Below, one piece after another: positions 1,945-32,639 of a DNA stretch of 64,000 nucleotides; the stretch's first letter is position 1; each line of letters begins with the position of its first letter. The stretch covers positions 440,185 through 504,184 of the forward strand of contig JBAZKL010000001.1 of assembly GCA_041650835.1 (NCBI GenBank), written 5' to 3'. This DNA is from Candidatus Omnitrophota bacterium. Lineage in GTDB: Bacteria > Omnitrophota > Gorgyraeia > Gygaellales > Profunditerraquicolaceae. Under the pieces are notes generated by a model that was given only the letters and a program-made list of their open reading frames with translations, was not told the origin of the DNA and made no database searches. The translations under genes were made by a program, and so were the position numbers.

Positions 1945-2394
1945 TTACTCATTAGTTGAAGCTGCTGATCCTGTATCAAGCTTGGCGCCGAAAACATCGG
2001 CCTTAACTATAAATCTCATGACCGGATTTTGCGCGTCATCGGTGTCAACGTAGACAAACTGGCGGACCGGCCCGTGATACCCCTTTGAATTAAATTTCAC
2101 ATTAAGCCACGTAGACTCACCCTTCTGCAATACATTTCTTCTTACCTCTGAAACCGTACATCCGCAGGATGAAGAAACATCTTTGATCTGTAAAGGCGCG
2201 CGACTGTCATTTTTGATCGTAAAATCATGCTCCACGACCTTACCTGCCTCCACCATGCCGAAATCCCAGATATTCTGCTCTTGGGCTTGCGCCTTTTGGG
2301 CGGGAGTATCGGGATCACCCGCAGGCTCAGAAAAACAACCGGACAAAGGAACCAGCAAGAACAAACCCGCCAATATCAAATGCCGCGTATTCAT
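1945..2394 (-). CDS. DUF1573-domain lipoprotein
   Basis: Signal peptide plus lipobox (LSGC). DFGMVEAGKVVEHDFTIKNDSRAPLQIKDVSSSCGCT is typical of the DUF1573 beta-sandwich domain. Confidence 0.6.
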   Translation of the reverse strand: MNTRHLILAGLFLLVPLSGCFSEPAGDPDTPAQKAQAQEQNIWDFGMVEAGKVVEHDFTIKNDSRAPLQIKDVSSSCGCTVSEVRRNVLQKGESTWLNVKFNSKGYHGPVRQFVYVDTDDAQNPVMRFIVKADVFGAKLDTGSAASTNE

Positions 2395-3572
2395 TATGCC
2401 CTCCAGATCAAATAAACCCCCAGGCCCAGGAAAAGGGCCACCATCGCCATTTTAACCGCTAAAAAATGCTTTTTAAAGAACCGGGCGAATTGCTCTGAGG
2501 TTGCGCCAAAAAGCGCGATCAAGAAAATAATACCTAACGGAACAACAAACATCAAATTATACAGCACCAGGTAAGTCAACGCCTCAAGTTTCAACTGCGT
2601 GCTTTTCAGGATAAAGGTGATGGTCGGTAAATACACCTGCCCCGTACATACCGCTTCCAATATCGACACCAGAAATCCCGTAACAAAGGTATTGACGGCT
2701 AAAGAGGCGAGCTTTATTTTTTCCGGCCCTCTATCTTCGGTTTTTTGCTTACGGTAACGCGCGCCGATAGCGGCATGTATCTTATTTTTCAAGCGTTCCG
2801 GCAGCTTTAGCGCAAGGCCGTCGGTGCTCAGGGTCCTTTTGTATTTCAGGAAATCTGAAAAAGCGAATACCCCCAGGATAAGACACATGAGCCCGATAGC
2901 GTAATTAATGACCTTAGTGGCCAGCCAGAATCCTTTCAAACGATAAAGAAACCCGAAAAGCCCCAGCCCGATCAAAAAATACGCCAAATACACCGCGGCG
3001 ATAAAAACCAGGCCGATAACCGACAATTCTCTTTTCCTATACCCCTGGAGTGAAAGATACGATATAAAGAAAATGATCACCGCGAAAGCGCACGGATTGA
3101 TACCGTCGATCAACCCCGCGCTTATAACGGCCCAGGGAGTGAACGAAAGAAAAAGCGCGACCAGGTCCTGCAGCGAATATTTACTTTCGCCGACAGGCGA
3201 GGCGCTTAAAGAACGCTCAATAAACTCAATGATCCCCGAACAGACCTCTTTCTCTCCACTCAGGAGATTCCCGTTCAAATAAACGATCGGCAACCCCAGC
3301 GATTTGGTTATCTTAAGCCTGCTCTTAAGGCTTGCCAGAAGCTTATACGTCTCAATATCTCCCATATCACGGTAAACAACAGTAAGCCGCCCTTTGAATT
3401 TTTCTTCAATTCCCGGCATACATTCCGCTTTTGCTTTTACGCAGGAATGACAGCTCGGAGAATGAAAGAAAATGAGCTCCGGGACACTTCCCGCCGGTTC
3501 ACCGGCGATAGAGATAATCGGCATACCAAACATACAAATAATACCGATAAATATATTTTTAAGTTTTCCCAT
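2394..3572 (-). CDS. Thioredoxin-fold domain fused to a DsbD/CcdA-type transmembrane thiol:disulfide electron-transfer domain
   Basis: The N-terminus has a signal peptide and CxxC (SPSCHSC). The C-terminal polytopic region carries GINPCAFAVI, which is typical of the DsbD_2/CcdA family. Confidence 0.7.
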   Translation of the reverse strand: MGKLKNIFIGIICMFGMPIISIAGEPAGSVPELIFFHSPSCHSCVKAKAECMPGIEEKFKGRLTVVYRDMGDIETYKLLASLKSRLKITKSLGLPIVYLNGNLLSGEKEVCSGIIEFIERSLSASPVGESKYSLQDLVALFLSFTPWAVISAGLIDGINPCAFAVIIFFISYLSLQGYRKRELSVIGLVFIAAVYLAYFLIGLGLFGFLYRLKGFWLATKVINYAIGLMCLILGVFAFSDFLKYKRTLSTDGLALKLPERLKNKIHAAIGARYRKQKTEDRGPEKIKLASLAVNTFVTGFLVSILEAVCTGQVYLPTITFILKSTQLKLEALTYLVLYNLMFVVPLGIIFLIALFGATSEQFARFFKKHFLAVKMAMVALFLGLGVYLIWRA

Positions 3573-4250: not shown

Positions 4251-6287
4251 TTAACCGCCGAGCACTTTCTCAGCCGCAGCTATGACTTCTTCAACAGTTA
4301 TGGCCTTCAAACAGGCAAACCCCTTCTTACAATAATGGGCCAGGCATTCAAAACACCCTGCCTCTTTATGTAAAACCTGATCTTTAGGCCCGAGCGGCCC
4401 CCAGCGCTTCGGGCCTAACCCCGGTTGGTTCCTTCCATAAATAACCACGACCGGCGTCTTGAGCGCCGCGGCAACATGCACCGGGCCGGAATCATTAGAA
4501 ATAAAAAGCCGGCAGCGCTGCAATACGACTGCCAGTTGGGCAACAGAGGTTTTCCCCGCCAGGTTCAACGCTTTATGGCGCATCTTTTTCATCACAGCTT
4601 CAGCGATTGCAGCGTCTTTGGCCCCTGCGACTATCAAAACAACAACATTATATTTATCAATTAACCTATCAGCCACCTGCGCGAAGCGCTCAGGCATCCA
4701 AAACTTTGAAATACAACTGGCAGCAGGATGGATCGCTATAAGGCCGGCGTTTTCTTTAACTCCATTCTGAACGAATAATTTACTTACCCAAACCTCTGCC
4801 TCCGGAGTTAAAGGCACATACAATCCGCTATGCCGCGGCACAACGCCGAGATACCTGACCAGATCAAGGTTGTATTCCATTTCATGCTTTTGCCCTGATT
4901 GTTTTGTATGCTCCAGCCGGTCGGTAAGCAGGAACCCCATTTTACGGTTATAGCCGAGGCGCTTTGGTATCCCGCTCAAATATGCCACCAGATGCGCCCT
5001 ATTGCTGGGATGCAGCACCACTACCAGGTCAAAGCGCAGCTTGCTTAATTGCCGCGCGAATAAGATCGTGCCGCGCCAGCTTTTTTGCAAATTATCTTTA
5101 TCATAAACAATGACTTTATCCAAATACGGATTACCATCGATTATATCTTTCGCGTGCGGGGCGACCATCATCGCCAAATACGCAGAAGGGAAGCCGTTCC
5201 TTAAAGCCTCGATAACCGGAGTCGAGAGCACCACATCCCCGATCTTATCGGTACGCACGACCAAAATGCGTTTAAACTCCTTACGCCCGGGAATTTCCCG
5301 CCGTTGCGCGGGAGCCCCGGACAGCACTTCCCTTACCGCCCTTACCACATCCTGGACCTTGATCAATTCCATACATTCAACCGTTCCATATAAACACTGC
5401 GCCTTCTGGCAGGGGCGGCAGGTGACCTCTTTTTTAACCACACGGTATTTTTCCGACCAGGGGCCGTACTTTATATCATCGCTGGCCCCAAAAAGCGCGA
5501 CGATAGGCTTATTTAAATAACTTGCCAATTGCAATGTGCCGGTATCGGCGGTTATCATTAAAGAGGCCTGTGTTATCAAATATACTAATTGGCTTAACGT
5601 GGTTGATCCCGAAAGATCGACGATCTTCCCCTTTGCCGGTGAGGGGCCGCCCGGGAAGCCCAAAGCTTGTTTTTTACTTCCTATAATTACAACAACATAT
5701 TCATTACTTAAAACCCGGCAAAGGCCCGCAATTTTTTCCAGCGGCCATTTCCTGTTCGCCCCTCCGGTTTCAGGGCTTATCAGGACAATCTTATCCCCGG
5801 GGATTATATAATGCTGTTTTAAAAGCCCCTGAACAAGCGCTTTATCTTCATCACCGGTAAAAAGCATTCCGGGCTGCGGCAAGACAAGCGGGCCGGGCTG
5901 TTTTAAAGCCCGTTGTAAACGGTAAAGGTGGCGGTCTTTGGCGCGTATCAACTCACGCGGCATGACCAGAAAAGGCGAGGTTTTATAGCGCGCCGGCAGA
6001 AGCGCGCCATACAGGGTATTACGCAAATCGATAACAATGTCAAAGCGCTCTTTTTTAAGCGCAAAGAATAAAGCTAATTTTACGCTCCAGGAAGAATATT
6101 TATCATAAATAATGAGGTTATCGATAAACGGATTCTGAGCAAAGATCTCTTTGGGCCGCGGGCCGACCATGACCGTAAGGCGCGCCCCGGGAAAACGCTG
6201 CCGCAGATGATCCAAAACAGGCAAAGTCAAAACGACATCGCCGAAATTACTTAAAGTAATGACCAGTATTTTTTGAACAGTTTCCAT
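4251..6287 (-). CDS. Tandem-duplicated glycosyltransferase family 9 protein (two heptosyltransferase-like GT9 domains in one 678-aa polypeptide)
   Basis: Two N-terminal GT9 signatures are present: KILVITLSNFGDVVLTLPVLDHLRQRF and RILVVRTDKIGDVVLSTPVIEALRNGF. Each is followed by a GT-B C-terminal half. Confidence 0.8.
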   Translation of the reverse strand: METVQKILVITLSNFGDVVLTLPVLDHLRQRFPGARLTVMVGPRPKEIFAQNPFIDNLIIYDKYSSWSVKLALFFALKKERFDIVIDLRNTLYGALLPARYKTSPFLVMPRELIRAKDRHLYRLQRALKQPGPLVLPQPGMLFTGDEDKALVQGLLKQHYIIPGDKIVLISPETGGANRKWPLEKIAGLCRVLSNEYVVVIIGSKKQALGFPGGPSPAKGKIVDLSGSTTLSQLVYLITQASLMITADTGTLQLASYLNKPIVALFGASDDIKYGPWSEKYRVVKKEVTCRPCQKAQCLYGTVECMELIKVQDVVRAVREVLSGAPAQRREIPGRKEFKRILVVRTDKIGDVVLSTPVIEALRNGFPSAYLAMMVAPHAKDIIDGNPYLDKVIVYDKDNLQKSWRGTILFARQLSKLRFDLVVVLHPSNRAHLVAYLSGIPKRLGYNRKMGFLLTDRLEHTKQSGQKHEMEYNLDLVRYLGVVPRHSGLYVPLTPEAEVWVSKLFVQNGVKENAGLIAIHPAASCISKFWMPERFAQVADRLIDKYNVVVLIVAGAKDAAIAEAVMKKMRHKALNLAGKTSVAQLAVVLQRCRLFISNDSGPVHVAAALKTPVVVIYGRNQPGLGPKRWGPLGPKDQVLHKEAGCFECLAHYCKKGFACLKAITVEEVIAAAEKVLGG

Positions 6288-6307
6288 AAGGTCAAGCCGC
6301 GAAAGGA

Positions 6308-7345
6308 TTATGCTTCAGCTTTGAATAAGCGTATCTGAGCTAAAACATCTTCGGGTTTAATCGCGTCCATACAACGGTTATTGCCGCAATCAACGCAATA
6401 ACAGGGGATCTGGCAGCCTGTTTTCTTCTGTATGATGACCACGTTATCTTGAGGGAACGGCCCGGTGATCAATGGATGAGTCGGGCCGAAAAGCCCGATT
6501 ATTTTCTTCGTGCCGACCGCGTTGGCAATATGGAGCGGCCCGGTATCGGCGCTGATAAACACGTCAAAGCGCTTGCACAAAGCGGCAAATTCTTTCAGGT
6601 CAAGCGCCCCGCAGGCAAAAATAACCTTTGTTTTCATAAGCGCCTGTATCTCATGCGCCAAAGAGATATCATCGTGGCTTCCGGTAATAATAATTTTAGC
6701 GCCGAATTCACGCGCCAGCGCGTCAGCCAGCAGCGCGTAATGCTCTTTGCGCCAACGCTTAGGCCCCCAATTGCCGCCCGGATTGATGCCGGCCACAAAA
6801 TCATTTTCAGTTACGGCATTTTTCCGCAGGAAGCCGTCAATAACCTCATGAGAGTAGGCCGGCAGGAAAAACTGGGTAAACCGGTCTTTCACCTTTAACC
6901 CGGAGCGTTCGATCAAATTTAAATAATAATCGATCCGGTGCACGGTATCCTGGGGAGCAGGCATAATATTCTTAGTCAAGAACAAACTGCGTTTTTGCGA
7001 ATAATAACCGATTCGAACCGGGATACCGGCAAGCCAGGTGATCAAAGCCCGGGTTAACGAACGATGTAAAAGAAAAACCATGTCGAACTTCATGCTCCGC
7101 AGCAGGAAAATAAATTTCAGCTTCGAGATAAAACTTTGATGCTCCTTACCTTCATCAAAAATGACGATCTGATCGATATACGGATTCCCCTCTAAAACCG
7201 GATAACAACGGCTCGGGATGACACAAGCGATAAAACTATCCGGATAATTATACTTAATATTACGGATCGTCGCTGTTGAGAACAAAACATCCCCTACCCA
7301 ATTCACATTAAAAATAAGTATACGCTCACTCGCGGAAGCAGACAT
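6308..7345 (-). CDS. Glycosyltransferase family 9 (LPS heptosyltransferase-like)
   Basis: ILIFNVNWVGDVLFSTATIRNIK is a GT9 N-terminal motif. The 345-aa GT-B fold fits a heptosyltransferase. Confidence 0.8.
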   Translation of the reverse strand: MSASASERILIFNVNWVGDVLFSTATIRNIKYNYPDSFIACVIPSRCYPVLEGNPYIDQIVIFDEGKEHQSFISKLKFIFLLRSMKFDMVFLLHRSLTRALITWLAGIPVRIGYYSQKRSLFLTKNIMPAPQDTVHRIDYYLNLIERSGLKVKDRFTQFFLPAYSHEVIDGFLRKNAVTENDFVAGINPGGNWGPKRWRKEHYALLADALAREFGAKIIITGSHDDISLAHEIQALMKTKVIFACGALDLKEFAALCKRFDVFISADTGPLHIANAVGTKKIIGLFGPTHPLITGPFPQDNVVIIQKKTGCQIPCYCVDCGNNRCMDAIKPEDVLAQIRLFKAEA

Positions 7346-7466
7346 CGGTACTCCTGGTTAATGAGATAGTAGAATAGTGGACTATAGCCTATAGTCCACA
7401 GTCAACGGTCGATGGTCCATAGACTATGGACTGTTGACCATCGGCTATGGACAATTCTCAATACTC
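7346..7466. repeat. Intergenic palindrome-rich repeat (GGACTATAG / CTATAGTCCA / GTCGATGGTCCATAG module family)
   Basis: The sequence tggactatagcctatagtccacagtcaacggtcgatggtccatagactatggactgttgaccatcggctatggac contains nested short inverted repeats. Related TAGTCCATAG / GTCGATAGTC modules recur at ~39811-39870, 40141-40170, 42941-42975 and 49791-49850. Confidence 0.7.
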
Positions 7467-8276
7467 TTACTTACCTTTATTCTTACCTTTTTTCTTACCT
7501 TTACTCTCCCGCATCATATTATAATAGCCGCTTGATTCAACCCAGAAAACGAATAAATTCGCGGCATTTTCCGATATCCTCAGCCGCTTAAACGCGAAAA
7601 GATCGTCATCGGCAAAGTCCCTGCCCGGATTGGTGGCTAACGCCATTGAATATCCCGCGTCAATCACGGCCTGCCTTACACCCGGATTAAACCCGCCGGC
7701 GGGATAACAAAAAGCATTCACCGGCCGTCCCAATTTCTCTTCCAGGACTTTCCGGGAACCAATAAGTTCTTTTTTCAGTTCTTCCGCAGATGTAACGTCA
7801 ATTAAATAAGGATGATTGAGCGTATGGCTGCCAAAGGAGATCAAGCCGGAATCCCGCATAATGCTCACCTGTTCCCACGTAAGCATACCGGGCCGGCCGA
7901 TCTCGTTGACAATGAGAAAGACCGTCGCGGGGAGACCGTATTTCTTTAAAACAGGGAACGCGACGGAATAATTGTCGAGGTAGCCGTCATCGAACGTAAG
8001 GGCAACGGTGCGCTCAGGCACAGGCTGCTTATCCCTGATGAGGCGCACGATCTCATCCAAAGGCACCACGTTATAATGATTGCGTTTTAAGAACTCCATT
8101 TGCCGGTCAAATGCTGCCGACGAAACGATCAATCTGTTTCCCTGAGGGACTTGCGGCTTGACCGAATGATACATAAGCACCGGCACAACATAATGATGCC
8201 GCAGGTAATTCACCGCGAAAACCGCCGCCACGGCAATGACCGCTAAGATTACAGCTCTTTTTTTATTTCTAAACAT
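7467..8276 (-). CDS. Polysaccharide deacetylase (NodB homology domain, CE4)
   Basis: LTFDDGYLDNY and HTLNHPYL are NodB motifs, and there is an N-terminal TM anchor. The start is trimmed to MFRNKK at 8276, because the longer ORF start overlaps the upstream GT gene. Confidence 0.8.
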   Translation of the reverse strand: MFRNKKRAVILAVIAVAAVFAVNYLRHHYVVPVLMYHSVKPQVPQGNRLIVSSAAFDRQMEFLKRNHYNVVPLDEIVRLIRDKQPVPERTVALTFDDGYLDNYSVAFPVLKKYGLPATVFLIVNEIGRPGMLTWEQVSIMRDSGLISFGSHTLNHPYLIDVTSAEELKKELIGSRKVLEEKLGRPVNAFCYPAGGFNPGVRQAVIDAGYSMALATNPGRDFADDDLFAFKRLRISENAANLFVFWVESSGYYNMMRESKGKKKGKNKGK

Positions 8277-9358
8277 TCCGCGTAAACCTCTTGAGTTTGG
8301 GCCGCCATCCGGCGGTGCGAAAAATCCTTCCTGATAAAAGCCTGGGCGCGCCGGGAAAAAAGCTGCCGCTTCCCGGCATCCTGAAGCAACGTTATTATAG
8401 CACACGCCAGCCCTTGCGGGTCCGCCGGTTCAACCAAAATACCGTTATAATCGTTTTGGATCAAACTTTTAATGCCGCCGACGTTAGAGCCGATGACCGG
8501 ACACCCCAAAGCCATAGCTTCCATCAAACCCAAGCCCAGCCCTTCATGAAGCGACGGCATTACAAACACATCCATGACCGACAAGAACCGTACTGTTTCA
8601 GGGACATTAGGAAGGAAAATAACCTTATCGCTGATCGCCAGTGAATCGGATAAACTCATAAGGTCTTTTTTGATCTTCCCTTCACCGATGATCAATAACC
8701 GGGCAGATGAGATCTTCTCGCTCACCTGCTTCATCGCTTCTATCAAATAGCGGTGCCCTTTTACCTCGGAAAGCCGCGCGAGTATCCCCACGATCAAACT
8801 ATTTGCTACCCCAAGCTCTTTCCTGGTTTGAAGGCAGGTTTGCTCGTCAGAACGGCTAAAGCGCTCCAGGTCGATACCGTTATGGATAAGCCTGATACGT
8901 TCAGGGGCGAGTTTAAGATCACCCGCGAGGTGATCGCGAACCTGAGCGCTGATCGCGATACACAAACGCCCCCAACAGGGCATAAGCATACGAAAAAGCC
9001 TCTTCTTGAAAAAACCATGGCACGTCGATACATAGGGCCGGCGGCAGCTCCAGGCAAGCAGGCAGCCGACAACCTGCGTGACACGGGTCTGCGCGTGAAT
9101 AATATCAATATCGTATTCTTTAACTTTCCGCGCTAATATCAAAAAAGTCCTTAAAACCTGGAGGCTTATTTCCTGTTTTGTGTTGATCGGCACGGGTATA
9201 TACTTGATCCCCGCTTTCTGAAAGCGCGGAAGAAGGTCTCCGGGGCCGGCGGCAATATAAACAGCGTGCCCCTTTTCCTTCATCGCTGCGGACAAGGTCA
9301 AAAGGTAGCTCGAAATGCCTCCGGTATTTAAATGAGTCGTAATATAAAGGATGTTCAT
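8249..9358 (-). CDS. Glycosyltransferase family 4 (GT1 group) protein
   Basis: MNILYITTHLNTGGISSYLL at the N-terminus and a C-terminal EGLGLGLMEAMALGCPVIGSNVGG motif, which is the GT4 retaining glycosyltransferase signature. Confidence 0.8.
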   Translation of the reverse strand: MNILYITTHLNTGGISSYLLTLSAAMKEKGHAVYIAAGPGDLLPRFQKAGIKYIPVPINTKQEISLQVLRTFLILARKVKEYDIDIIHAQTRVTQVVGCLLAWSCRRPYVSTCHGFFKKRLFRMLMPCWGRLCIAISAQVRDHLAGDLKLAPERIRLIHNGIDLERFSRSDEQTCLQTRKELGVANSLIVGILARLSEVKGHRYLIEAMKQVSEKISSARLLIIGEGKIKKDLMSLSDSLAISDKVIFLPNVPETVRFLSVMDVFVMPSLHEGLGLGLMEAMALGCPVIGSNVGGIKSLIQNDYNGILVEPADPQGLACAIITLLQDAGKRQLFSRRAQAFIRKDFSHRRMAAQTQEVYAECLEIKKEL

Positions 9359-11478
9359 GCGGTTGTTTTTATGATCTGCATAAGCGCTTCTAAGACTTCT
9401 TCCGGCTTAATAAGCTCCATACACTTCAAGCTTTCGCACTTTGACCGGTAACAGGGGCTGCACGGCAGGTCTTTTCTTAAAACGGCCAGCCTTTTTGCCG
9501 GCGGGACATGGCGCCGGGGGTCCGTCGGGCCGAACAACGCGATGACAGGAGTATCAACGGCGGCGGCAATATGCAACGGAGCGGAATCAGCGGAAATATA
9601 AACATTGCACCGCTTCACCAGGCACGCCAATTGATTAACCGTCGTTTTACCGCAGCCGTTAATGAGCTTGGAATTCTTAACCGTATTCAAAAGCTTCTGA
9701 GCGAGGCCTGAGTCGGCTTCAGTTCCCGTGATCACCACGCGAATATCCCTGCGGCCGAGCTCTTCACACAATTTCACCAAATGATGGTATGGCCATGCCT
9801 TGGTTTCCCAGCGACGGCTGGCGCTCACATTGATCCCGACGACCTTCTGATGAGGGCTCATCCAATGAGAGGCAAAGAACTCCTCAATATATTTTTCATC
9901 CTGCTGAGACGGCCAAAGCTCTAAACCGCGGCCCTTAAGCTCAATGCCCAGCATCTTTAATATCCTGAACTGATGGGTCACCGGGTCCAAAGCCGGTTTT
10001 TCATCCTTAATACGGTGATTAAGCAAAAAACCGTATTTCTTGTTATCATAACCGTAGCGGTTCATCGCTAAGCTCAACCGGGAAAGAATATGGCTTTTAC
10101 GGTTATTCTGCAGGTCGATGACCACATCAAAATGCTTCTTCCTTAAGAAACGGGCGAGCCTCAGGAATCCGAAAAGCCCTTTATCCCTGTTCTTAAAATC
10201 ACACACGAGCAGCTCATCAATATAGGGGCATACCATCAAGAGCTCTTTTGACTCATCGCCTACCAGAAAACTAAGCTTGTGATTCCGGGTGAAGCCGCTC
10301 CCTGCATCACTGCTGAAGCTTTCCCGGACCGCTTTTATCGCGGCGCTCGACAGGATAATATCTCCTAAAGAACTGAATTTGATCATCAAGATCTTGAGGT
10401 CTTCCAGCGCTTCTTTATAAACACCCAGAGTATCTTCAACCATACGTTTTACGTCGTATTTTTCCTTCACTTTTTGATACGCCGCTTCCGAGAACTTATG
10501 AGCGAGCTCTTTATCGTTATATATCTTCAGGACTGCTTCAGCCATATGCACCGGGTCAGCCGGAGGCACCAGTAAGCCGGTTTTCCCGTCATCGATAATA
10601 TCAACAACGCCGCCGACGCTCGTCGCCACTACAGGCACGCCGCAGGCCTGCGCTTCGATAACCACCCTGCCGAAAGCCTCATGCGTTGTCGTCGATAAGA
10701 CCAGCAGGTCCAGGTGTTTTAAGATCTCAGGGATGTTTTTCTGGGTCCCCAGGAATTCGGTCGAATTCCAAAGCCCCGTTCTCTTGACTAACACCTGCAG
10801 CTGTTCTTTATACGCCGCCTTGGAAACAGGGGCATCGCCTACGATCCATACCTTAAGGTTCGGGACCGAGCGCATCACCCGGGCCATCGCTTTGATAAAA
10901 TACAAATGCCCTTTAAGAGGAGTGATCCTGCCGATGATCCCGACATTGAACTCCTTGTTCTTCTTTTTATCAAACGGGATAAATTTAAATTTCTCAAGGT
11001 CAACACTGCGCGGGATCAGGCGTATCCGGGAATGGGGGACGCCGAAGTCGTCGATCATATGGCGGCCGATCACGTTACTGGGGACAATGACCCTCTTTGC
11101 CCAACCCATCACATAGCTTAGCAGGTGCTTTTTATAATACCCGTGACAGGTAGTGATAAACACTTTACGGGTCTTTCGGCAGGCAAAATAAGCGATCCAG
11201 GCGGGGATACGGGAACGGGCATGGACGATATCCACCTTTTCCTTCTCGATGATCTCGACCAATCGGGGGACCATCTTAACCATTTGAAAGATCGATTTCT
11301 TGTGTACGGGAAGGCAATAATGGAGGGCACCCGCTGCCTCAAGGTCTTTTACCAATTCACCGCCGTTTGAAACCACCACGACTTTATGGCCCAGCTTAAC
11401 CGCGTATTTTGCCAGGTCCACGGTGCCGGTTTCAACCCCCCCTACCCTCAATTCAGGTAATATTTGCAGTATATTCAT
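9355..11478 (-). CDS. Bifunctional glycosyltransferase: N-terminal GT4 domain fused to a C-terminal GT9 heptosyltransferase-like domain
   Basis: Residues ~1-350 are GT4 (MNILQILPELRVGGVETGTVDL ... EAFGRVVIEAQACGVPVVATSVGG). Residues ~360-707 are GT9 (LKILMIKFSSLGDIILSSAAIKAVRESF ... SADSAPLHIAAAV). Confidence 0.8.
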   Translation of the reverse strand: MNILQILPELRVGGVETGTVDLAKYAVKLGHKVVVVSNGGELVKDLEAAGALHYCLPVHKKSIFQMVKMVPRLVEIIEKEKVDIVHARSRIPAWIAYFACRKTRKVFITTCHGYYKKHLLSYVMGWAKRVIVPSNVIGRHMIDDFGVPHSRIRLIPRSVDLEKFKFIPFDKKKNKEFNVGIIGRITPLKGHLYFIKAMARVMRSVPNLKVWIVGDAPVSKAAYKEQLQVLVKRTGLWNSTEFLGTQKNIPEILKHLDLLVLSTTTHEAFGRVVIEAQACGVPVVATSVGGVVDIIDDGKTGLLVPPADPVHMAEAVLKIYNDKELAHKFSEAAYQKVKEKYDVKRMVEDTLGVYKEALEDLKILMIKFSSLGDIILSSAAIKAVRESFSSDAGSGFTRNHKLSFLVGDESKELLMVCPYIDELLVCDFKNRDKGLFGFLRLARFLRKKHFDVVIDLQNNRKSHILSRLSLAMNRYGYDNKKYGFLLNHRIKDEKPALDPVTHQFRILKMLGIELKGRGLELWPSQQDEKYIEEFFASHWMSPHQKVVGINVSASRRWETKAWPYHHLVKLCEELGRRDIRVVITGTEADSGLAQKLLNTVKNSKLINGCGKTTVNQLACLVKRCNVYISADSAPLHIAAAVDTPVIALFGPTDPRRHVPPAKRLAVLRKDLPCSPCYRSKCESLKCMELIKPEEVLEALMQIIKTTA

Positions 11479-11590
11479 ATGGTCATCTAAAGTATTGCGG
11501 AACTATTAAACTGTTACAACTGCTCCGCCCTGTGAACGCCGGCGCAAGGATAATACTTTATTTTATATTAAAACTTGGTATAATAAAAAC

Positions 11591-11842
11591 ATGTCAAAAG
11601 AAAAAGACCTGCTCAACATTTTACTGTTTGTCGTTACGATCTTCATTATCGCGATACTTATTAATTACGCGATGTTTATTTTTGCCAGGCTCGGAAAAAC
11701 TCCTGAAAGCCGGCCCAAGCCGCACCTCATGAAGATCGAAGAAAAAAAAGCCTTTAAGGATGACCGGGATTACCGTAAAGTGATCGACAGCTCTAAAACC
11801 GATTATAAAGACTTCATGCAGCAAAAAATGATCTCACCGTAA
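11591..11842 (+). CDS. Small hypothetical membrane protein (one TM helix, charged C-terminal tail)
   Basis: 83 aa. A TATAAT-like box sits immediately upstream (ttggtataataaaaacATG). It is a plus-strand gene in a minus-strand block and shows no recognisable homology. Confidence 0.35.
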   Translation: MSKEKDLLNILLFVVTIFIIAILINYAMFIFARLGKTPESRPKPHLMKIEEKKAFKDDRDYRKVIDSSKTDYKDFMQQKMISP

Positions 11843-11856
11843 TACCGCTCCTTTCA

Positions 11857-13806
11857 TCACATAATACGGCGCAGCTTTTCCTCAATCACCCTTTTATTCT
11901 CCAGCCTTAAGACTGCCGGATCACCTTGAAACAACCGCTCGATAAGCCCGGAAAGCTCAACGGGATGACAAAGATGAATATATCCGTCTTGGGACATTTG
12001 TTTCAGGAATGCTCCGTGGCGGCGGCGTAACCCCGCCGCCTGGAAAACAATGACATGCTTACCGCTGCCGGCTGCTTCGGAGATCATAGAAATACTTTCA
12101 GGAGAAACAACGACCAAACGGCTCAACCCCAATATCCCGCCCACTGCTTCAGGGATATTACGTTCATTAGCGATCACTTGCAAGAGGCAGCGCGGTTCAT
12201 CGCGCAATTCGCTCTTGATAAGCGCTTCCACTGTTTTTGACGTCCGCCGGGATGTGGATACCAGGATAGAAAAACCTTTCCCGGCGGCAAGAGCTTTAAC
12301 CTGAGCGAATACCTCAGCCACGGCCTTCGGCTCTAAACAAAAATTTTTTGTGTCTCCGCCGATTAAAATCCCGATAGCAGGGCCCGGCGGGGTGGAAGAA
12401 GACGGCATCAGCCGCTTTAATGCTTGAGCCTGGCTTTCAATATATTCCCGGTCGATCAAATTAAGCGCCCCTGCTGTTACGGCGATATTCTTACCCCGCG
12501 GGGGATTATCATGGCGGGGCATCACGACCAGATCAAAACCTCCTAAATCCAGTATTGACGGCCGCATAACTACCAGAGATTTGGCGAGTGATTCCCGGGA
12601 AAGGACCCGGTTCACGGCCGCCCCTGAAGAACCGCATGAAATAATAATATCCGGGGTTTGGCTCTTGAGCTGCCGGTAACAGGAAGCCTCTAAAGAAACC
12701 TTCAGGCAGGATAAGCATCCCTGACAGACCCACCCCGCCGAAAAACAGCTGGCCAGCGTTAACGCCTGGCGTAAAAATACGCTTTTATATTTTAACCGCA
12801 CGCACCCGGTATTGACACGAATGCCTTTATCCGCCAGATACCCGCAGGTGATCTTGGCAAGTGATTCCGACTGGCGAAGATGTCCCGTTTTGCCGTCATC
12901 CAGGATCAGGAGAAAACGCTCCCGCGAATATTTCCAGATCTTATATATCCAAAGGTATTCCTGGGGATAACGGGTAATATATTTTTCGAAAACATGCGTC
13001 AGCGCCTGCACATTATCCCGGATATCGGCATCAAGGTCGCCGGTTTCCTTAAGCGCGAAAGCAGGCTCTATAAAGACCGTAATCACCGGCCCCGCTACGC
13101 GCGTAAAGAAAACGGGGACTATTGCTACACCGTATTTTAACGCCAGGCGGACCGCCCCGCTCGACATTGAAGCGCCTTTACCGAAGAAGCTCACTTCCAC
13201 GCCGGCCTTGCCTCCCTGGTCCAGCGTCATACCGACCGCCTGATTACGCTTCAGGATTTCTATCAGCTGCCGGATCTCATTCTTTCTCTGAAGAATTGAG
13301 CAGCCTTTTTGGCTGCGATATGAATTCAACAAACGGTTCAGGCGCGGCATTTTCTGGTCGTTGACAAACATATGGAACGGCACTCCTAAATTGGCGCTGA
13401 GTATATTGGAAAGCTCCCAACTGCCTTCATGAATGCCAAGGAAGATGAGCCCCTTGCCTTTTTGCAGGCTTTCCTGAATATGCCCCAACCCTTCAAAACG
13501 GATATACCGGTTAATGTACTTTCTATCGACCTGGGGAATAAAGAATATCTCAATGAGGTTCTGCCCAAAGCTGCGGTAGAAATCATGAGCAAGCCTGAAC
13601 AATTCTCCGGGGGAACGCTGAGCGCCGAAAGCCGACTTAAGATTCGCGTAAACGCGCTGGCGGTGCTTACCGTCACAATAAAAGACACACGTTCCCAACA
13701 GCCTCCCTAAAGCAAGGCTCACCCTTTTGGGCAGGCTTCGTAAAAGCGGGCCGCAGGATCTAAAAACTATACAGCCGAAGTAATCGATTAAGGAATCTTT
13801 GTTCAT
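11857..13806 (-). CDS. Lipid A biosynthesis LpxL/HtrB-like acyltransferase fused to a C-terminal ELM1/PF06258-like (predicted nucleoside-diphosphate-sugar-binding) domain
   Basis: The N-terminal half has the LPLAT HX4D-like motif (LGIHEGSWELSN) and LpxL-like length. The C-terminal half (DIIISCGSSGAAVNRVL...FDLVVMPRHDNPPRGKNIAVTAGALNLI) resembles bacterial ELM1-family proteins. The start is set at MNKDSL (13806); the longer ORF overlaps lpxK. Confidence 0.6.
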   Translation of the reverse strand: MNKDSLIDYFGCIVFRSCGPLLRSLPKRVSLALGRLLGTCVFYCDGKHRQRVYANLKSAFGAQRSPGELFRLAHDFYRSFGQNLIEIFFIPQVDRKYINRYIRFEGLGHIQESLQKGKGLIFLGIHEGSWELSNILSANLGVPFHMFVNDQKMPRLNRLLNSYRSQKGCSILQRKNEIRQLIEILKRNQAVGMTLDQGGKAGVEVSFFGKGASMSSGAVRLALKYGVAIVPVFFTRVAGPVITVFIEPAFALKETGDLDADIRDNVQALTHVFEKYITRYPQEYLWIYKIWKYSRERFLLILDDGKTGHLRQSESLAKITCGYLADKGIRVNTGCVRLKYKSVFLRQALTLASCFSAGWVCQGCLSCLKVSLEASCYRQLKSQTPDIIISCGSSGAAVNRVLSRESLAKSLVVMRPSILDLGGFDLVVMPRHDNPPRGKNIAVTAGALNLIDREYIESQAQALKRLMPSSSTPPGPAIGILIGGDTKNFCLEPKAVAEVFAQVKALAAGKGFSILVSTSRRTSKTVEALIKSELRDEPRCLLQVIANERNIPEAVGGILGLSRLVVVSPESISMISEAAGSGKHVIVFQAAGLRRRHGAFLKQMSQDGYIHLCHPVELSGLIERLFQGDPAVLRLENKRVIEEKLRRIM

Positions 13807-14845
13807 CTTTGACGATTTTAAGTTCAATGCGCAAAGCATAGAGCGCGCACAATGGATTTCTTTCGTATAAAGACAAAAAACGCGCCGCGTCCTTTTCCGT
13901 CGTAATAATAGCTTCGATATTCTTTTCTTTCGCGCGCGCGCACAGCAACTGCCAATCCCGGAGAGAATAACAATGATGGTCCTGATACCTGACCGATAAA
14001 GCGCTCTGTATCCCCAAAGTGCCGGTAAGCTTCTCAAAAGCATCAGGATTCCCGATGCCCGAGACCAAAACAGCCGTTTTTCCCTTGAAAAAAGACGGCG
14101 CTAACAGTTCAGCAGGGTTATCGATACGGTAAAAACCTGCCGCTTGGGGTAGCGCTTCCACGATCAACGCCCGGGGGTTAAGCTGCGCCAATGAATCGCG
14201 TAAAGCAGACGTCTCTGCGGTTATATGCGTGTTATTCAGGACAAAAATGTCCGCGCGTTTCAATGATACGAGAGGCTCACGCAGGATCCCCCGCGGGATC
14301 ATCTTTCGGTTCCCAAAGCAAACGGCAGCATCGATCACCACGATCTCTAAATCCTTGGCGATACGCCATTGCTGAAAGCCATCGTCGAAAATAACCGTAT
14401 CGGCTTTATGCTCGTTTATTGCCCGCAGGCTGCCGGCTACCCTGTCAGCCCCGACTATAACGGGAACGCCTTGAAGGTTCTGCGCGAGCATCTTTGCCTC
14501 ATCCCCCATGGACGCGTAACCGGGGAGGGAATTCTTTTTAAGCCTTTTATAACCCCTGGTTATTATCGCTACGGCAGAACCCCGCCCTTTTAAATACCGG
14601 GCGATATATTCCACGAGCGGTGTTTTTCCTGTCCCTCCGAGAGTAATATTCCCGACGCTGACCACTTTACAGGGCAAGCGGTACGGCCTGAGGGAGCACC
14701 ACCGGCTCAACACCCGTACAATCGCCCCGTAAAGAATGGATAAACCAAACAAGACAGCTTTGAAGATGCCGGCAGGAGCCCCTTGTTTTTTATCCGTTGC
14801 CAGCTCTAAAAGATATTCTTTTATCATACGCTTAAACACGCTCAA
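13760..14845 (-). CDS. lpxK: Tetraacyldisaccharide 4'-kinase LpxK
   Basis: The Walker A motif sits in the LpxK context (VSVGNITLGGTGKTPLVEYIARYL). The size is ~360 aa. Confidence 0.85.
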   Translation of the reverse strand: MSVFKRMIKEYLLELATDKKQGAPAGIFKAVLFGLSILYGAIVRVLSRWCSLRPYRLPCKVVSVGNITLGGTGKTPLVEYIARYLKGRGSAVAIITRGYKRLKKNSLPGYASMGDEAKMLAQNLQGVPVIVGADRVAGSLRAINEHKADTVIFDDGFQQWRIAKDLEIVVIDAAVCFGNRKMIPRGILREPLVSLKRADIFVLNNTHITAETSALRDSLAQLNPRALIVEALPQAAGFYRIDNPAELLAPSFFKGKTAVLVSGIGNPDAFEKLTGTLGIQSALSVRYQDHHCYSLRDWQLLCARAKEKNIEAIITTEKDAARFLSLYERNPLCALYALRIELKIVKDEQRFLNRLLRLYSF

Positions 14846-14893
14846 GTCGCGCGCGCTTTCATTATATCGCTAAAACCGCCGGTTCCCAAACCC

Positions 14894-15568
14894 TTAAAAA
14901 TCTATTTTCTCTCCCTTGATGATACCGGGTAAATTCTGGGCGTCAATACGCATACCGCCGTCATGTTCGATCTTTATCGTATAAAGTAACCCCGGGAGAA
15001 ACCTCGTTCCCGGAGCTTCTATCTGAGCATTTTTAACACCAGCCCTTTTTGATCGGCGGGGTTCAAAAGCGTATTGCCAGAATTTCCTCCAAAGTTTCTT
15101 TTCAAAACCATTCCTCCCCCCCGTTACCGCATAGCCGCCCGGGACCTCATTTACCCGGGTGATCTCGAACTCCTCCACTCCCGGGCCGGTAAACGCGAAA
15201 GCCTTGAGGAAAATATAGGCGCTCTTTCCCCTAAAGGGATCAGCCGACTTCACGTAAAGATCATCAAACCTGATAACCAAAGACTGGAACTGTATAATAT
15301 TCCCGGAAAAGGTAAAATAACGCGGGGAAAGCGGGTTATTGCGGGTATCATACTCTAAGAATTTAATGGTCGTAAACACTTTATTCAGCTTCTGATCGGG
15401 TTTTACCTCAGTAACCAGGACTTCGGCGATCCTGGTTTCCGCTGTCAGGCGTTCGATAACCTTAAGCAAGAGGGACCTTTCCCGCATATACCTGGCCACC
15501 AAAAAGACCACGAGGGAAAAAACGGCCAAAACAACGATAGCCTTAAATCTTTGCCCCGTCAAGCGCAT
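14894..15568 (-). CDS. Hypothetical membrane-anchored protein
   Basis: An N-terminal TM helix is followed by a ~190-aa soluble domain with no recognisable motif. Confidence 0.45.
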   Translation of the reverse strand: MRLTGQRFKAIVVLAVFSLVVFLVARYMRERSLLLKVIERLTAETRIAEVLVTEVKPDQKLNKVFTTIKFLEYDTRNNPLSPRYFTFSGNIIQFQSLVIRFDDLYVKSADPFRGKSAYIFLKAFAFTGPGVEEFEITRVNEVPGGYAVTGGRNGFEKKLWRKFWQYAFEPRRSKRAGVKNAQIEAPGTRFLPGLLYTIKIEHDGGMRIDAQNLPGIIKGEKIDF

Positions 15569-15589
15569 AGCATCCTTTTTTAACTTAAA

Positions 15590-16330
15590 TTACAGATGGA
15601 ACAGCCGTATCCTTGCCAAAGACAAAATATCCTGACGGCTGGTGACCTTTTGAATATCCGACACATACTTACCGATAGAAGGCTTCATCCCCAGGGTCTC
15701 CTGCGCGGCGATAAGCAGCGAATTTTCTCCCGGGGGGACAAAAGCGAAAAATAAGAATACCAGGATAAAATACATACCCTGAGAGACCAGGAACATCTTC
15801 AGGCTTTCCGCGAATTGCAGGCCGAATGCCCGCGCCTGCAGCCAAATATAAAAAACAACGGCAATAAACAAAATACCCACGGTAAGCTGCTGGCTGAAAA
15901 CACCCGCCAGGTCAGTCTGGAATTTAAAAACAAGCGCGTTCAACATTTCCCACAATCCCCGGGAAAGCAACAAGACGACAAACCAGCCGATATTCAGGTT
16001 CAGGAAAAAAGAAAGAAATTTCTTCCAATCCTGAGCCACGATCCTTACCGAGAAGAAAAACGCCAGCCACACGCACGCTAATGATACTAACAGGTCGATC
16101 ACGGACAAGACTACCGTATCCTGTAATTCGACAACAACAGGGCCTTCTTTTTTGTCAGGACCCGTATAATTAAGAAGCCATTGGTAAAAGCTTACCGCCT
16201 TCACCGGCGCCTCCGTTGCCGCAACTGCCGTCACCCGGCGGGTCGGCTCCTGTGCCCGCAGGCTCACCTGCCACAACAACCCTCCCAGCGCCATAAACAA
16301 AACTGGAACAAAGATCCATATCCGCTTCAT
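15590..16330 (-). CDS. Hypothetical polytopic membrane protein with signal peptide
   Basis: A signal peptide, then a ~60-aa soluble segment, then 5-6 TM helices. No known motif is recognisable. Confidence 0.45.
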   Translation of the reverse strand: MKRIWIFVPVLFMALGGLLWQVSLRAQEPTRRVTAVAATEAPVKAVSFYQWLLNYTGPDKKEGPVVVELQDTVVLSVIDLLVSLACVWLAFFFSVRIVAQDWKKFLSFFLNLNIGWFVVLLLSRGLWEMLNALVFKFQTDLAGVFSQQLTVGILFIAVVFYIWLQARAFGLQFAESLKMFLVSQGMYFILVFLFFAFVPPGENSLLIAAQETLGMKPSIGKYVSDIQKVTSRQDILSLARIRLFHL

Positions 16331-16468
16331 CGCAGCCTCCGGCTTTCTAAAACCCCCCTTAAAACCATGGGGTCTTCCATATACAAGATACTATTATATC
16401 TCATTTTTTATGATATGGAGAAAATCAAAACTTTATTGTTACGGCTCAATGATGAGTGGTGATACGCG

Positions 16469-19084: not shown

Positions 19085-19178
19085 AGTTATAATAGGAACC
19101 CCGCTCTTTTTACGCGATCAAACTATTGGGAATCGTAAAAGGAGCGGGGTTATTCACAAAGTAAACGCCTGCAAATAC

Positions 19179-19859: not shown

Positions 19860-19984
19860 CGCTCCACCTCCTTACAAGGTTAACAAAACCATAAGAAAAA
19901 CCTTTCTTATGGGAAAAACCAAGCTGACTTCAAGCTTTAAACGGGTCATCAATATTTTTATAACTTTATCATAAATATCGAGTT

Positions 19985-20165: not shown

Positions 20166-20189
20166 TCATCGATAACCGACTATTACTTC

Positions 20190-20864: not shown

Positions 20865-20904
20865 ATTTTAAGAAACAATAACTGAATTATCATTAACAGA
20901 TACT

Positions 20905-25181: not shown

Positions 25182-25190
25182 TTGACTCCT

Positions 25191-30648: not shown

Positions 30649-31371
30649 CTAATCGTTAGAACAGCTCAACGGAAGGTTACGCTCGACGAACTCGAGGATC
30701 TTCTTCTGCGTCTGGTTGTCTAATTTGTAGAACTCCAGGCCCATTCCCGGATAAAGCTGCGGTTGCAGCTCTTTCTGCACCAGCCAGGACACCTTGCAGT
30801 CAAGTTCAATGAGCCCGGGGCTGGGCAGAAGCGTAAGTTTAACGCGCAGCAATTCTCCCAACGGATAATTCTTATCGGCAAAAACGAGCAGCCCAACGGC
30901 GCTTAAATTAAAGACTTTACCGCGGATAAAATCTTTTTCGCGCGTTTTTGACCTAAGCTCTATATGAATATCCAGCGGCAGGCGTTTAAACCGGCGGCGC
31001 AGCTTCTTTTTCTGGATCTCGAGCATAGAACGCTCTCCCTCAAAGCTTTTCAGGGCTTCCTCAAGGCTGTCGTAAACATCCAGCACCCGGTCAAGATAAA
31101 CCAGGCACAAAATTTTTTTCAGGTGCGCGGAAATATTACAAAGCTTCATGTGCGCCTGATGGTTAAGCACATTCTTGTAGGCGATCGTCAACACGGTCAA
31201 ACCGGGGTAATCGATCATACTGACATCCTGAAAATCACAGACGATATTCTTAAAACCGTTATCCAGGCACCAGCCGATCCTTTCGATAAAATTAGCGGCA
31301 TCGATATCGATAGTCCCGGACAGCTCAAGGACCATACCCGACTTTTCCTTGCGTAATCTGATCTCTAACAT
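30649..31371 (-). CDS. STAS (anti-sigma-factor-antagonist-like) domain fused to a C-terminal PilZ (c-di-GMP-binding) domain
   Basis: The N-terminal ~110 aa form a STAS fold (MVLELSGTIDIDAANFIERI...MIDYPGLTVL). The C-terminal ~110 aa form a PilZ beta-barrel with an RxxxR-like segment (KKLRRRFKR) and D/SxSxGG-like FNLSAVGLLV. Confidence 0.6.
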   Translation of the reverse strand: MLEIRLRKEKSGMVLELSGTIDIDAANFIERIGWCLDNGFKNIVCDFQDVSMIDYPGLTVLTIAYKNVLNHQAHMKLCNISAHLKKILCLVYLDRVLDVYDSLEEALKSFEGERSMLEIQKKKLRRRFKRLPLDIHIELRSKTREKDFIRGKVFNLSAVGLLVFADKNYPLGELLRVKLTLLPSPGLIELDCKVSWLVQKELQPQLYPGMGLEFYKLDNQTQKKILEFVERNLPLSCSND

Positions 31372-32639
31372 AAGATTTCCTTAATTGAACTTAATATTGC
31401 GGCAGTCGCGCCTCGCTGCTTTGTAATGAGCTCTTGAGCGCGCCGTCCGAGCTTCATTAATTGCTCGGGATCATTTAATAAGCGAGTTATGCTTTCTTCC
31501 AGCCCCCCTATGTCCCTGACGGAGATCGCGGCCTGGTTTGACAAGAAGAGATCCGTAATATCGCGGAAGTTGAACATATGCGGGCCGAAAACAACCGCCT
31601 TTCCCAGCACTGCCGGCTCCAATATATTATGCCCGCCCCGGGGAATGAGGCTTCCGCCGACAAAAACGATATCCGCGGCGCGGTAAACCGATACCAGGTC
31701 CCCGATAGTATCCAGTATCACGACCGTTTGAGCGTTGAAGGAAGGCTGTTTATCCGCCAACCGGGAAAAACGAGCAGGTAAAAGCCCAAAACCTGCGATA
31801 ATTTTCTCTATTTCCGCTGCCCTGTCGGGATGGCGCGGAGCCAGGAGCAGGCGCAATCCCGGGAACATAGGCCTCAGATGCGTATAAACCCGCAATAATC
31901 CCTCTTCTTCGCCGGGATGCGTGGAACCGGCGACTAAAAACTTTTCCCGGGGGCTCAACCCCAAACGCAGACGGTAATCCCGGCCTTTCTTCTCCAAGGG
32001 CGCAGGAGGCGCCTCTACGTCAAACTTCATATTCCCCGCGACTTTAATTTTTGCACTCCTTACCCCGATGTCAGCGAATCGCTCGGCATCACGCCGGCTC
32101 TGGACACAAAACAACATAACCTTATTCAAGAATGGCGCGAGCAGGAATTTAATTGAACGATATCCCTTATAAGAAGCGTCCGAGATCCTCCCATTGACCA
32201 CGATCACCGGGACCTTTTTCCGGTACAGGCAGCTGATCAGGTTCGGCCAAAGTTCGGTCTCCACAATGATAAAAAGCCGGGGATTGATCCGCGTAATGAC
32301 TTTGTTGACGATAAAGCTAAAATCAAGCGGCAGGTACAAGACCTTGTCCCCATCCCGGGAAATATTCCGGGCGATAGTATTGCCGGTAGGTGTCACCGTA
32401 GAAATGACGAATTTGACGCCGGGGATTCCTTCGCGTAAAGCTTCAACCAAATTCTTCACCGCCATCGCCTCGCCGACACTCACCGCGTGGATCCAAACCG
32501 GACGTTCCTTGAATACGTCTGTCCCCGGCAGGAAGCCAAAACGCATCAGGAATCCCGGATGAAACTTATTCTTAAGAATATACCTCGGCAAATAAACGAG
32601 TGTCACAAAAAAAGCGATAATATCATAAATGATAAACAT
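31365..32639 (-). CDS. waaA: 3-deoxy-D-manno-octulosonic acid (Kdo) transferase WaaA/KdtA
   Basis: N-terminal TM anchor, VWIHAVSVGEAMAV (KdtA N-domain signature), GT-B fold, 424 aa. Confidence 0.85.
   Translation of the reverse strand: MFIIYDIIAFFVTLVYLPRYILKNKFHPGFLMRFGFLPGTDVFKERPVWIHAVSVGEAMAVKNLVEALREGIPGVKFVISTVTPTGNTIARNISRDGDKVLYLPLDFSFIVNKVITRINPRLFIIVETELWPNLISCLYRKKVPVIVVNGRISDASYKGYRSIKFLLAPFLNKVMLFCVQSRRDAERFADIGVRSAKIKVAGNMKFDVEAPPAPLEKKGRDYRLRLGLSPREKFLVAGSTHPGEEEGLLRVYTHLRPMFPGLRLLLAPRHPDRAAEIEKIIAGFGLLPARFSRLADKQPSFNAQTVVILDTIGDLVSVYRAADIVFVGGSLIPRGGHNILEPAVLGKAVVFGPHMFNFRDITDLFLSNQAAISVRDIGGLEESITRLLNDPEQLMKLGRRAQELITKQRGATAAILSSIKEILC

Follow-up and report, generated by a model that had tools for sequence, protein, structure and literature searches.

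Fused two-domain enzymes in a predicted late lipid A and inner-core lipopolysaccharide operon of the phylum Omnitrophota

The 64-kb window analysed here (64,000 nucleotides, nt) is part of an 868-kb contig from a metagenome-assembled genome (MAG) of Candidatus Omnitrophota (ENA ERZ27247363). Its positions 4251-14845 carry a block of genes assigned to late lipid A and lipopolysaccharide (LPS) core synthesis, three of which code for fusions: a late acyltransferase followed by an ELM1-like glycosyltransferase (GT) domain of Pfam family PF06258 (LpxL::ELM1), a GT4 followed by a GT9, and two GT9 domains in tandem. We hold with high confidence that these fusions are real and belong to lipid A/core assembly. 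On balance, we also favour the reading of the locus as a conserved late lipid A/inner-core LPS operon of the phylum Omnitrophota, with three genes for fused bifunctional enzymes that would act in the pathway proposed below. What is new is the architectures (acyltransferase fused to core GT, GT4 to GT9, GT9 to GT9), which are stable phylum-wide; the domain families are all known. The features of the block are listed below (aa, amino acids).

13760..14845, - strand: lpxK (tetraacyldisaccharide 4'-kinase), first gene of the conserved block, 361 aa; Pfam LpxK, E 9e-78
13760..13806, - strand: overlap of lpxK and lpxL::ELM1, 47 nt, dual-coding, out of frame
11857-13806, - strand: LpxL::ELM1 fusion, 649 aa; Lip_A_acyltrans, E 6e-49 (167 bits), and Mito_fiss_Elm1 (PF06258), E 2e-50 (172 bits, cut-off 27)
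12919..13806, - strand: LpxL/HtrB-type late acyltransferase domain, aa 1-296; HX4E dyad H126/E131 at 13414-13431
11857..12918, - strand: ELM1/GtrOC1/KdoT-family GT-B domain (PF06258), aa 297-649 plus stop
Within the latter, - strand: ELM1 motifs DGKTGH (aa 304-309), CQGCLSC (12706-12726), H432-D433 and SRRT (12241-12252, aa 519-522)
9355-11478, - strand: GT4::GT9 fusion, 707 aa; GT4 at aa 12-335, E 2e-41, and GT9 at aa 439-683, E 3e-39
10414..11478, - strand: GT4a domain, aa 1-355 of GT4::GT9, EX7E E267/E275; Glycos_transf_1, E 2e-41, Glyco_transf_4, E 1e-33
9355..10413, - strand: GT9a domain, aa 356-707 plus stop of GT4::GT9; PF01075, E 3e-39
8249..9358, - strand: GT4b, stand-alone GT4, 369 aa, position kept in relatives; Glycos_transf_1, E 9e-39
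7467..8276, - strand: NodB-type polysaccharide deacetylase, 269 aa from the ATG at 8276, N-terminal signal-anchor helix; Polysacc_deac_1, E 2e-29
6308..7345, - strand: GT9b, stand-alone GT9, heptosyltransferase II-like, 345 aa; PF01075, E 6e-33
4251-6287, - strand: GT9::GT9 fusion, 678 aa; Glyco_transf_9 in two stretches, E 3e-67
5283..6287, - strand: GT9c domain, aa 1-335 of GT9::GT9, the most divergent GT9; TIGR02195, 117 bits (under cut-off)
4251..5282, - strand: GT9d domain, aa 336-678 plus stop of GT9::GT9; TIGR02195, 156.6 bits (over cut-off)

The fused genes in the window and in related genomes

Pfam confirms every domain in 4251-14845, with E values from 1e-29 to 1e-78 and all matches far over the cut-offs. 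The open reading frames (ORFs) are found on the - strand, at the coordinates given by the original prediction, and its domain assignments, its three fusions and its attribution of the locus to LPS core and lipid A all stand after Pfam and NCBIfam profile searches, including the match of the C-terminal half of the 11857-13806 ORF to PF06258. The genes within the first 20 kb of the window are all on the - strand, save an 83-aa ORF at 11591-11842 (+ strand).

That the long ORFs are artefacts, i.e. neighbouring genes merged by a frameshift or an assembly error, had to be considered, the window being from a metagenome assembly and two related loci (L055 and L018) carrying a single in-frame TAG in lpxL::ELM1. 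This explanation, to which we give practically no weight, is refuted by the recurrence of the same fusions in relatives and in an independent assembly. The three ORFs are split by neither frameshift nor stop codon, here and in the independent assembly; DNA identical to the window over 3,950 nt containing lpxL::ELM1 is present in the Logan assembly of run SRR8542065, and the exact GT9::GT9 protein is present on three contigs. There are more than 100 full-length homologues per fusion with the same Pfam combination, and all source-given names among them are Omnitrophota or Omnitrophica. Different samples yielded the fusions in 50-83 loci, 45-70% identical and with the junctions conserved, and confident structure models show contiguous two-domain structures.

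When one genome per GTDB species was scanned, a relative turned out to be encoded in 473 of these species-level genomes. The best 80 of these 473, which are the ones listed, all have a full-length LpxL::ELM1, and all are Omnitrophota or MAGs with generic Planctomycetales, Deltaproteobacteria or 'bacterium' labels. The related loci (numbered L001, L002 and so on) are 83 fetched regions that hold 80 distinct sequences and reach at most 10 kb upstream of lpxL::ELM1; their domains were assigned by best match. The order lpxK - LpxL::ELM1 - GT4a::GT9a - GT4b - deacetylase - GT9b - GT9c::GT9d is kept in ~80 related Omnitrophota species genomes, where the same three fusions were found, the fused genes being 45-70% identical. 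LpxL and ELM1 are in a single frame in 83 of 83 loci (two with one in-frame TAG each), GT4a::GT9a is fused in all 75 loci holding both domains, and GT9c::GT9d in 50 of the 53 that extend that far. The fusions, predicted to be unusual, are so by comparison with model proteobacteria but not within the lineage, where they are the norm. The three exceptions for GT9c::GT9d (L032, L040 and L062) each lack one GT9 domain entirely, which makes the GT9 domains separable modules: L032 and L040 have a stand-alone GT9d and no GT9c, and L062 has GT9c only, without GT9d and without the deacetylase. Such domain-loss variants imply that the core structure is variable within the phylum.

A few oddities were seen among the relatives. 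The in-frame TAG replaces an Ala/Ser before CxxC in L055:3380-5299, and a Leu at residue 33 in L018:30-1967; each may stem from a sequencing error, mark a pseudogene or be read through. Selenocysteine was rejected for the L055 stop, the codon being TAG and the replaced residue Ala/Ser, not Cys. Thirteen loci (L004, L019, L041, L051, L053, L059, L062, L063, L068, L071, L072, L080 and L081) are titled '(uncultured) Planctomycetales bacterium' or 'Deltaproteobacteria bacterium'. They have the Omnitrophota-type fusion, at 45-83% identity, with the same downstream genes wherever the contig is long enough, and their labels are probably placeholders or wrong taxonomy.

The proteins already carry automatic database names: the NCBI name for the identical 649-aa protein is 'ELM1/GtrOC1 family putative glycosyltransferase' and JGI lists both halves of LpxL::ELM1. 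Literature searches on fused or bifunctional heptosyltransferases, DUF1022, COG3660 and PF06258 returned only Acinetobacter papers, and none was found that discusses these fusions.

LpxL::ELM1 and its overlap with lpxK

The lpxK product scores 177 bits on TIGR00682 (cut-off 92), and in 81 related loci the gene immediately precedes LpxL::ELM1. The longest lpxL::ELM1 ORF extends to 14043; the NCBI 649-aa protein (100% identical) and all orthologues begin with the ATG at 13806. With this start the overlap with lpxK, predicted at ~47 nt, is exactly 47 nt. Relative to lpxK, lpxL is read in the +1 frame, and where the stretch codes twice both proteins are conserved, LpxK at its C-terminus and LpxL at its N-terminus. 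All 64 measurable loci share this length of exactly 47 nt, though the proteins are only ~50% identical. This is unusually rigid, since the length could have varied by multiples of 3. The simplest reading is a tight coupling of lpxK and lpxL; no sign of programmed frameshifting was found at lpxK/lpxL.

The motif alignments took in 42-49 orthologues. In that of the acyltransferase domain, H126 and E131 of HEGSWE are invariant, in agreement with the HX4(D/E) pattern. The domain has a family likeness to E. coli LpxL/LpxM and to A. baumannii LpxM (PDB 5KN7/5KNK); it differs in being fused to a glycosyltransferase and in scoring under all the NCBIfam equivalog cut-offs (best, NF006270, 136.5 bits versus 248; TIGR02207, 81.6 versus 297.8). 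The connector to ELM1 is only ~6 residues long, from the conserved YLWxYKxWKY to the first strand ILILSDGKTGH, and the structure model is contiguous and two-domain (predicted local distance difference test, pLDDT, 89.5; predicted template modelling score, pTM, 0.85).

The ELM1 domain is modelled as a GT-B fold with two Rossmann subdomains. In 49 orthologues, S519, R520 and R521 do not vary and T522 is kept in at least 90%; D304 and H309 (DGKxGH), H432, D433, C361, C364 and C367 are invariant as well. The median identity to the window among related loci is 46%, and the domain is with GT9c among the least conserved. An insert in the N-terminal subdomain holds the invariant CxxCxxC (aa 361-367, 12706-12726) and a nearly invariant fourth Cys, C391; model confidence is locally lower there (~70), and from its sequence pattern CxxCxxC...C may be a metal or iron-sulphur (Fe-S) site. 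Stand-alone ELM1 relatives are 32-40% identical, with SRRT in all and CxxCxxC in some only. No sequence homologue was returned by a PDB search with the domain (best E 0.89).

The original prediction called the function of PF06258 unknown, which is outdated: KdoT of A. baumannii ('ELM1-like') has been shown in vitro to be a transferase of 3-deoxy-D-manno-oct-2-ulosonic acid (Kdo) that uses CMP-Kdo and acts on Kdo2-lipid IVA (PMC12856342). In Acinetobacter it adds a third Kdo, CMP-Kdo being the donor and Kdo2-lipid IVA the acceptor; a tetra-acylated substrate is preferred over a hexa-acylated one, and lipid IVA is unusable as acceptor (PMC12856342). KdoT requires R180 of SRRT, a motif found in every homologue of the supplement alignment, including one from Rickettsia; the role proposed for the arginine of the motif is to hold the carboxylate group of Kdo (PMC12856342). 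Deletion of the A. baumannii ELM1-like protein leaves a Kdo2 core; the 2024 mBio paper that reports it considered a non-catalytic role for the protein (PMC10936431) and is from the Trent laboratory, like that on KdoT (PMC12856342). GtrOC1 of the A. baumannii OC locus is a PF06258 member (PMC10327509); its gene heads a cluster in which GT4 enzymes and a polysaccharide deacetylase are encoded as well (PMC10327509, PMC10936431). From gene order and Pfam assignment we infer that KdoT (A1S_2903) is GtrOC1.

The likeness of the Omnitrophota domain to KdoT consists of the same PF06258 family, the GT-B fold and SRRT, with a coexisting canonical WaaA and with GT4 enzymes and a polysaccharide deacetylase in the neighbourhood. 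The spacing of D304/H309, H432/D433 and R520/R521 also mirrors that of D8/H13, H109/D110 and R179/R180 in KdoT, save for two inserts. Kdo2-lipid IVA, the substrate of KdoT, is that of LpxL too. KdoT, however, is a stand-alone protein of ~35 kDa, whereas the Omnitrophota domain follows an LpxL-type acyltransferase in one polypeptide, with hardly any linker, and has the conserved CxxCxxC...C insert; and the Acinetobacter core is without heptose whereas the Omnitrophota operon has four GT9 domains. The closest known system is therefore a composite, A. baumannii WaaA + KdoT + GnaT/LpsB + Pda combined with a WaaC/WaaF/WaaQ-like heptosyltransferase set. Replacement of WaaA by the ELM1 domain was rejected, a canonical waaA being in the window and KdoT being unable to use lipid IVA; with that waaA at 31365-32639, the ELM1 domain would supplement WaaA.

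Glycosyltransferases, deacetylase and surroundings

Pairwise BLAST shows all four GT9 domains to be full-length, with 24-29% identity among them; GT4a is 28% identical to GT4b. At such low identities the fusions join old paralogues. A recent tandem duplication was rejected as the origin of GT9::GT9, GT9c and GT9d being 28% identical and each having its own orthologue set. The GT4a-GT9a junction is linkerless. The GT9c-GT9d linker is variable (~10-20 residues) and predicted to be disordered, residues 327-334 having a pLDDT <50; the model of the whole protein (pLDDT 86.4, pTM 0.83) has two complete GT-B folds.

Conservation within the operon is highest in GT4a (median identity 71%), where E267 and E275 of EX7E are invariant. 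It is lowest in GT9c (median 43.5%). The GT9 signatures GD, KxW and D(T/S)GxxH are kept, save that the His of DTGxxH is a Gln in GT9c of this genome. The invariant residues are G372-D373, K560/W562, D631, H636 and C673/676/681/686 in GT9a; G16-D17, W181, D248 and C290/293/298/305 in GT9c; and G350-D351, W530, D599, H604 and C645/648/653/659 in GT9d. GT9b, looked at in this genome, has VGDV, KRW and ADTGPLH. The motif residues presumably map to D13, K192 and D261 of E. coli heptosyltransferase I (HepI). GT9a, GT9c and GT9d each end in an invariant four-Cys motif, Cx2Cx4Cx5-6C, and a similar Cys-rich stretch, CQIPCYCVDCGNNRC, is present in the 345-aa GT9b (this genome only). Both Cys loops of the 678-aa GT9c::GT9d model have a pLDDT <50, as expected for a metal-dependent loop; in the alignment these cysteines are missing from the Veillonella GT9 structure 3TOV.

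On the heptosyltransferase II (HepII) model TIGR02195 (cut-off 134.6 bits), GT9b (165.6) and GT9d (156.6) are over the cut-off and GT9a (128.5) and GT9c (117.3) under it; no GT9 domain reaches the NCBIfam cut-offs for HepI (185.3) or HepIII (170.2). GT9d matches PDB 3TOV (E 3e-37) and WaaF 1PSW (E 1e-21). With WaaC/WaaF/WaaQ (HepI-III; PDB 1PSW, 2H1H, 3TOV) the domains share PF01075, the GD Asp, KxW, D(T/S)GxxH and the GT-B fold. Those enzymes are separate genes in model organisms, whereas here GT9 is fused to GT9 and to GT4; unlike them, the Omnitrophota GT9 domains are old paralogues, each ending in a four-Cys motif. KpsC, with its dual beta-Kdo transferase domains, resembles these fusions in having two GT modules for successive additions on one polypeptide; it differs in its GT families and acceptors and has no acyltransferase fused to it.

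GT4a scores 118 bits on the PelF model NF038011 (cut-off 100), in a match limited to profile positions 275-484 of 489. PelF membership failed, for want of a full-length match and of pel genes nearby. The partial match is the source of the name 'GT4 family glycosyltransferase PelF' given to some NCBI orthologues, which looks like an over-annotation in view of the LPS context.

The longest ORF of the deacetylase is 7467-8405 (312 aa); orthologue lengths and the public gene call make the ATG at 8276 (269 aa) the most likely start. The protein has partial PgaB/IcaB-like matches and is present in 54 related loci. Its N-terminus, MFRNKKR, is followed by a hydrophobic helix, and its C-terminal tail, KGKKKGKNKGK, is Lys-rich. 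By the positive-inside rule it is probably N-in, with the catalytic domain outside the cytoplasm, on the periplasmic side; if this topology is right, de-N-acetylation would come after lipid flipping.

Two further features of the window bear on the block:

11591..11842, + strand: small membrane-protein ORF, 83 aa, between LpxL::ELM1 and GT4::GT9
31365..32639, - strand: canonical waaA (Kdo transferase); Glycos_transf_N, E 6e-60

The 83-aa ORF, with one predicted transmembrane helix and no Pfam match, sits in the 378-nt gap between lpxL::ELM1 and GT4::GT9, and two public assemblies annotate it as a gene. It is at the same position in L005 and L004 (86-87% identity), L007 (48%) and L065 (36%), and absent from most relatives, where lpxL::ELM1 and GT4::GT9 abut or overlap. 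It lies on the opposite strand and splits the block into two transcription units in this sub-lineage. A promoter/terminator scan of the 378-nt gap gave nothing over chance, and an Rfam scan of the window zero matches.

The waaA product scores 366 bits on NF004388, under the 438-bit cut-off of the model. In the window the gene is ~16.5 kb upstream of the block; it was found in 51 of the 83 related loci, within the upstream stretch fetched. Only two small genes, STAS-PilZ and GDT1, are between waaA and lpxK in L001. In the window, 14846-31364 (lpxK to waaA) holds GH94, GH77, MscS-like, HAD, DoxX, UbiA, polyprenyl synthase, SufBD/SufC, FAA hydrolase and NUDIX genes; the GH94/MscS-like context upstream is also seen in L002, which makes at least two arrangements in the phylum. 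In L001, a heptose-7-phosphate kinase (TIGR02198, 373 bits, cut-off 345) is encoded at most 2 kb beyond the downstream end of the operon; the gene after it matches CTP_transf_3, the Pfam family of KdsB. Three ORFs of the window, all on the - strand, have no Pfam match: 14894-15568 (224 aa), 15590-16330 (246 aa) and 2394-3572 (392 aa). The first two have no NCBIfam match either, and the 246-aa protein looks like a multi-pass membrane protein. The 392-aa ORF is between PTS-EIIA and DUF1573 genes, and L002 has a family-less 394-aa gene at the same place, a likeness of size and position.

Proposed pathway, alternatives and meaning

What we observe are the architectures and how well they are conserved, together with intact motifs and folds; the donor and acceptor specificities, the order of the steps and the benefit of fusion we infer, as follows. 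LpxK, from family membership and gene order, would produce lipid IVA, to which the canonical WaaA would add Kdo, giving Kdo-lipid IVA. The membrane-associated LpxL::ELM1 would then act twice on Kdo-lipid IVA (Kdo2-lipid IVA): its N-terminal domain of LpxL/LpxM fold (HX4E) would add a secondary acyl chain, and its ELM1 GT-B domain (SRRT) would transfer a sugar of the inner core. If A. baumannii KdoT is a guide, this sugar is most likely one more Kdo, donated by CMP-Kdo. The six other GT-B domains, in GT4a::GT9a, GT4b, GT9b and GT9c::GT9d, would lengthen the core by sugars of hexose and heptose type, and the NodB-type enzyme, probably exported, would de-N-acetylate an amino sugar. The proposed steps follow the gene order of the operon, waaA excepted (16.5 kb upstream here). 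Both halves of LpxL::ELM1 would share their substrate, which makes the fusion mechanistically sensible and fits the preference of KdoT for an under-acylated substrate. Both domains are probably active on Kdo-lipid A intermediates. The assignment of CMP-Kdo as the ELM1 donor, which rests on the analogy with KdoT, is a tentative one; for this donor, with Kdo2-lipid IVA as acceptor, indirect support comes from the fusion to LpxL, the lpxK overlap and the occurrence of waaA. The coupling of secondary acylation to extra-Kdo transfer on the same Kdo2-lipid IVA molecule is possible, with still more reserve. Substrate hand-over or a 1:1 stoichiometry at the membrane may be the benefit of fusion, and that fusion fixes the order of sugar addition, as originally suggested, is plausible. 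The use of heptose is supported by the HepII-level scores of GT9b and GT9d and by the heptose-7-phosphate kinase near the operon in L001.

Several points weigh against this pathway. The kinship to KdoT rests on Pfam membership, SRRT and motif spacing, and PF06258 also holds the outer-core paralogues GtrOC14, 19a/b and 22, which probably use other donors, so that Kdo specificity is not implied by family membership. The LpxL domain misses the NCBIfam equivalog level, as do two of the four GT9 domains, none of which is at the HepI cut-off. No heptose-pathway genes were found in the 64-kb window.

Assembly error being set aside above, three other explanations bear on what the domains do. ELM1 could be an active inner-core GT with a donor other than CMP-Kdo (e.g. 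a hexose, a hexuronic acid or an amino sugar transferred onto Kdo), the fusion then coupling acylation to the first non-Kdo core step. We regard this as rather unlikely: the only biochemically characterised PF06258 member uses CMP-Kdo, at the Kdo2-lipid IVA stage that is also the LpxL substrate (PMC12856342), and the SRRT arginine proposed to hold the Kdo carboxylate is invariant in the Omnitrophota domain. It is improbable that one or more of the fused domains are catalytically dead, ELM1 or GT9c serving as a scaffold or acceptor-binding module that presents the substrate to its partner. A non-catalytic role was considered for the ELM1-like protein in 2024 (PMC10936431), and GT9c has the lowest median identity, is under the HepII cut-off with a strong match in its C-terminal half only, has Gln for the DTGxxH His here and is missing from two lineages; yet its catalytic Asp D17, W181, D248 and four-Cys motif are invariant, as are the SRRT, DGKxGH and HD motifs of ELM1, and KdoT is active alone in vitro (PMC12856342).

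More improbable still is that the GT4/GT9 genes build a non-LPS product, by protein heptosylation (TibC/Aah type) or as an exopolysaccharide (PelF type). The PelF score of GT4a, the PelF names of some orthologues and a deacetylase that resembles PgaB/IcaB and appears exported would fit the latter, but the PelF match is to the generic C-terminal half of the profile, and the window has no other Pel or Pga genes. The TibC/Aah model gives 27 bits against a cut-off of 200. An opposite-strand gene does separate the GT genes from lpxK-lpxL in this sub-lineage; in most relatives, however, they abut or overlap LpxL::ELM1 and are co-directional with lpxK, 51 of the 83 loci also having waaA.

What ELM1-like proteins do in bacteria came to light only in 2024-2025, from work on a single organism. 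The LpxL::ELM1 fusion, its overlap with lpxK and the usual adjacency of waaA are independent genomic evidence of the 'Rosetta stone' kind. They suggest that the PF06258 family works at the Kdo2-lipid IVA stage and that the pathway variant extends beyond the Proteobacteria. If acylation and the transfer of an extra Kdo are indeed coupled, the WaaA-plus-KdoT 'split Kdo pathway' (2025) would be ancient and reach the mostly uncultured Omnitrophota, the CxxCxxC...C of ELM1 and the four-Cys motifs of the GT9 domains would be added metal sites not described for the model enzymes, and the whole core would be built by fused two-module enzymes. The operon offers a compact, defined set of predicted bifunctional enzymes from which the chemistry of the Omnitrophota LPS core may be learnt, and with which one could ask whether order or stoichiometry is imposed by the fusion of core glycosyltransferases that act in succession.

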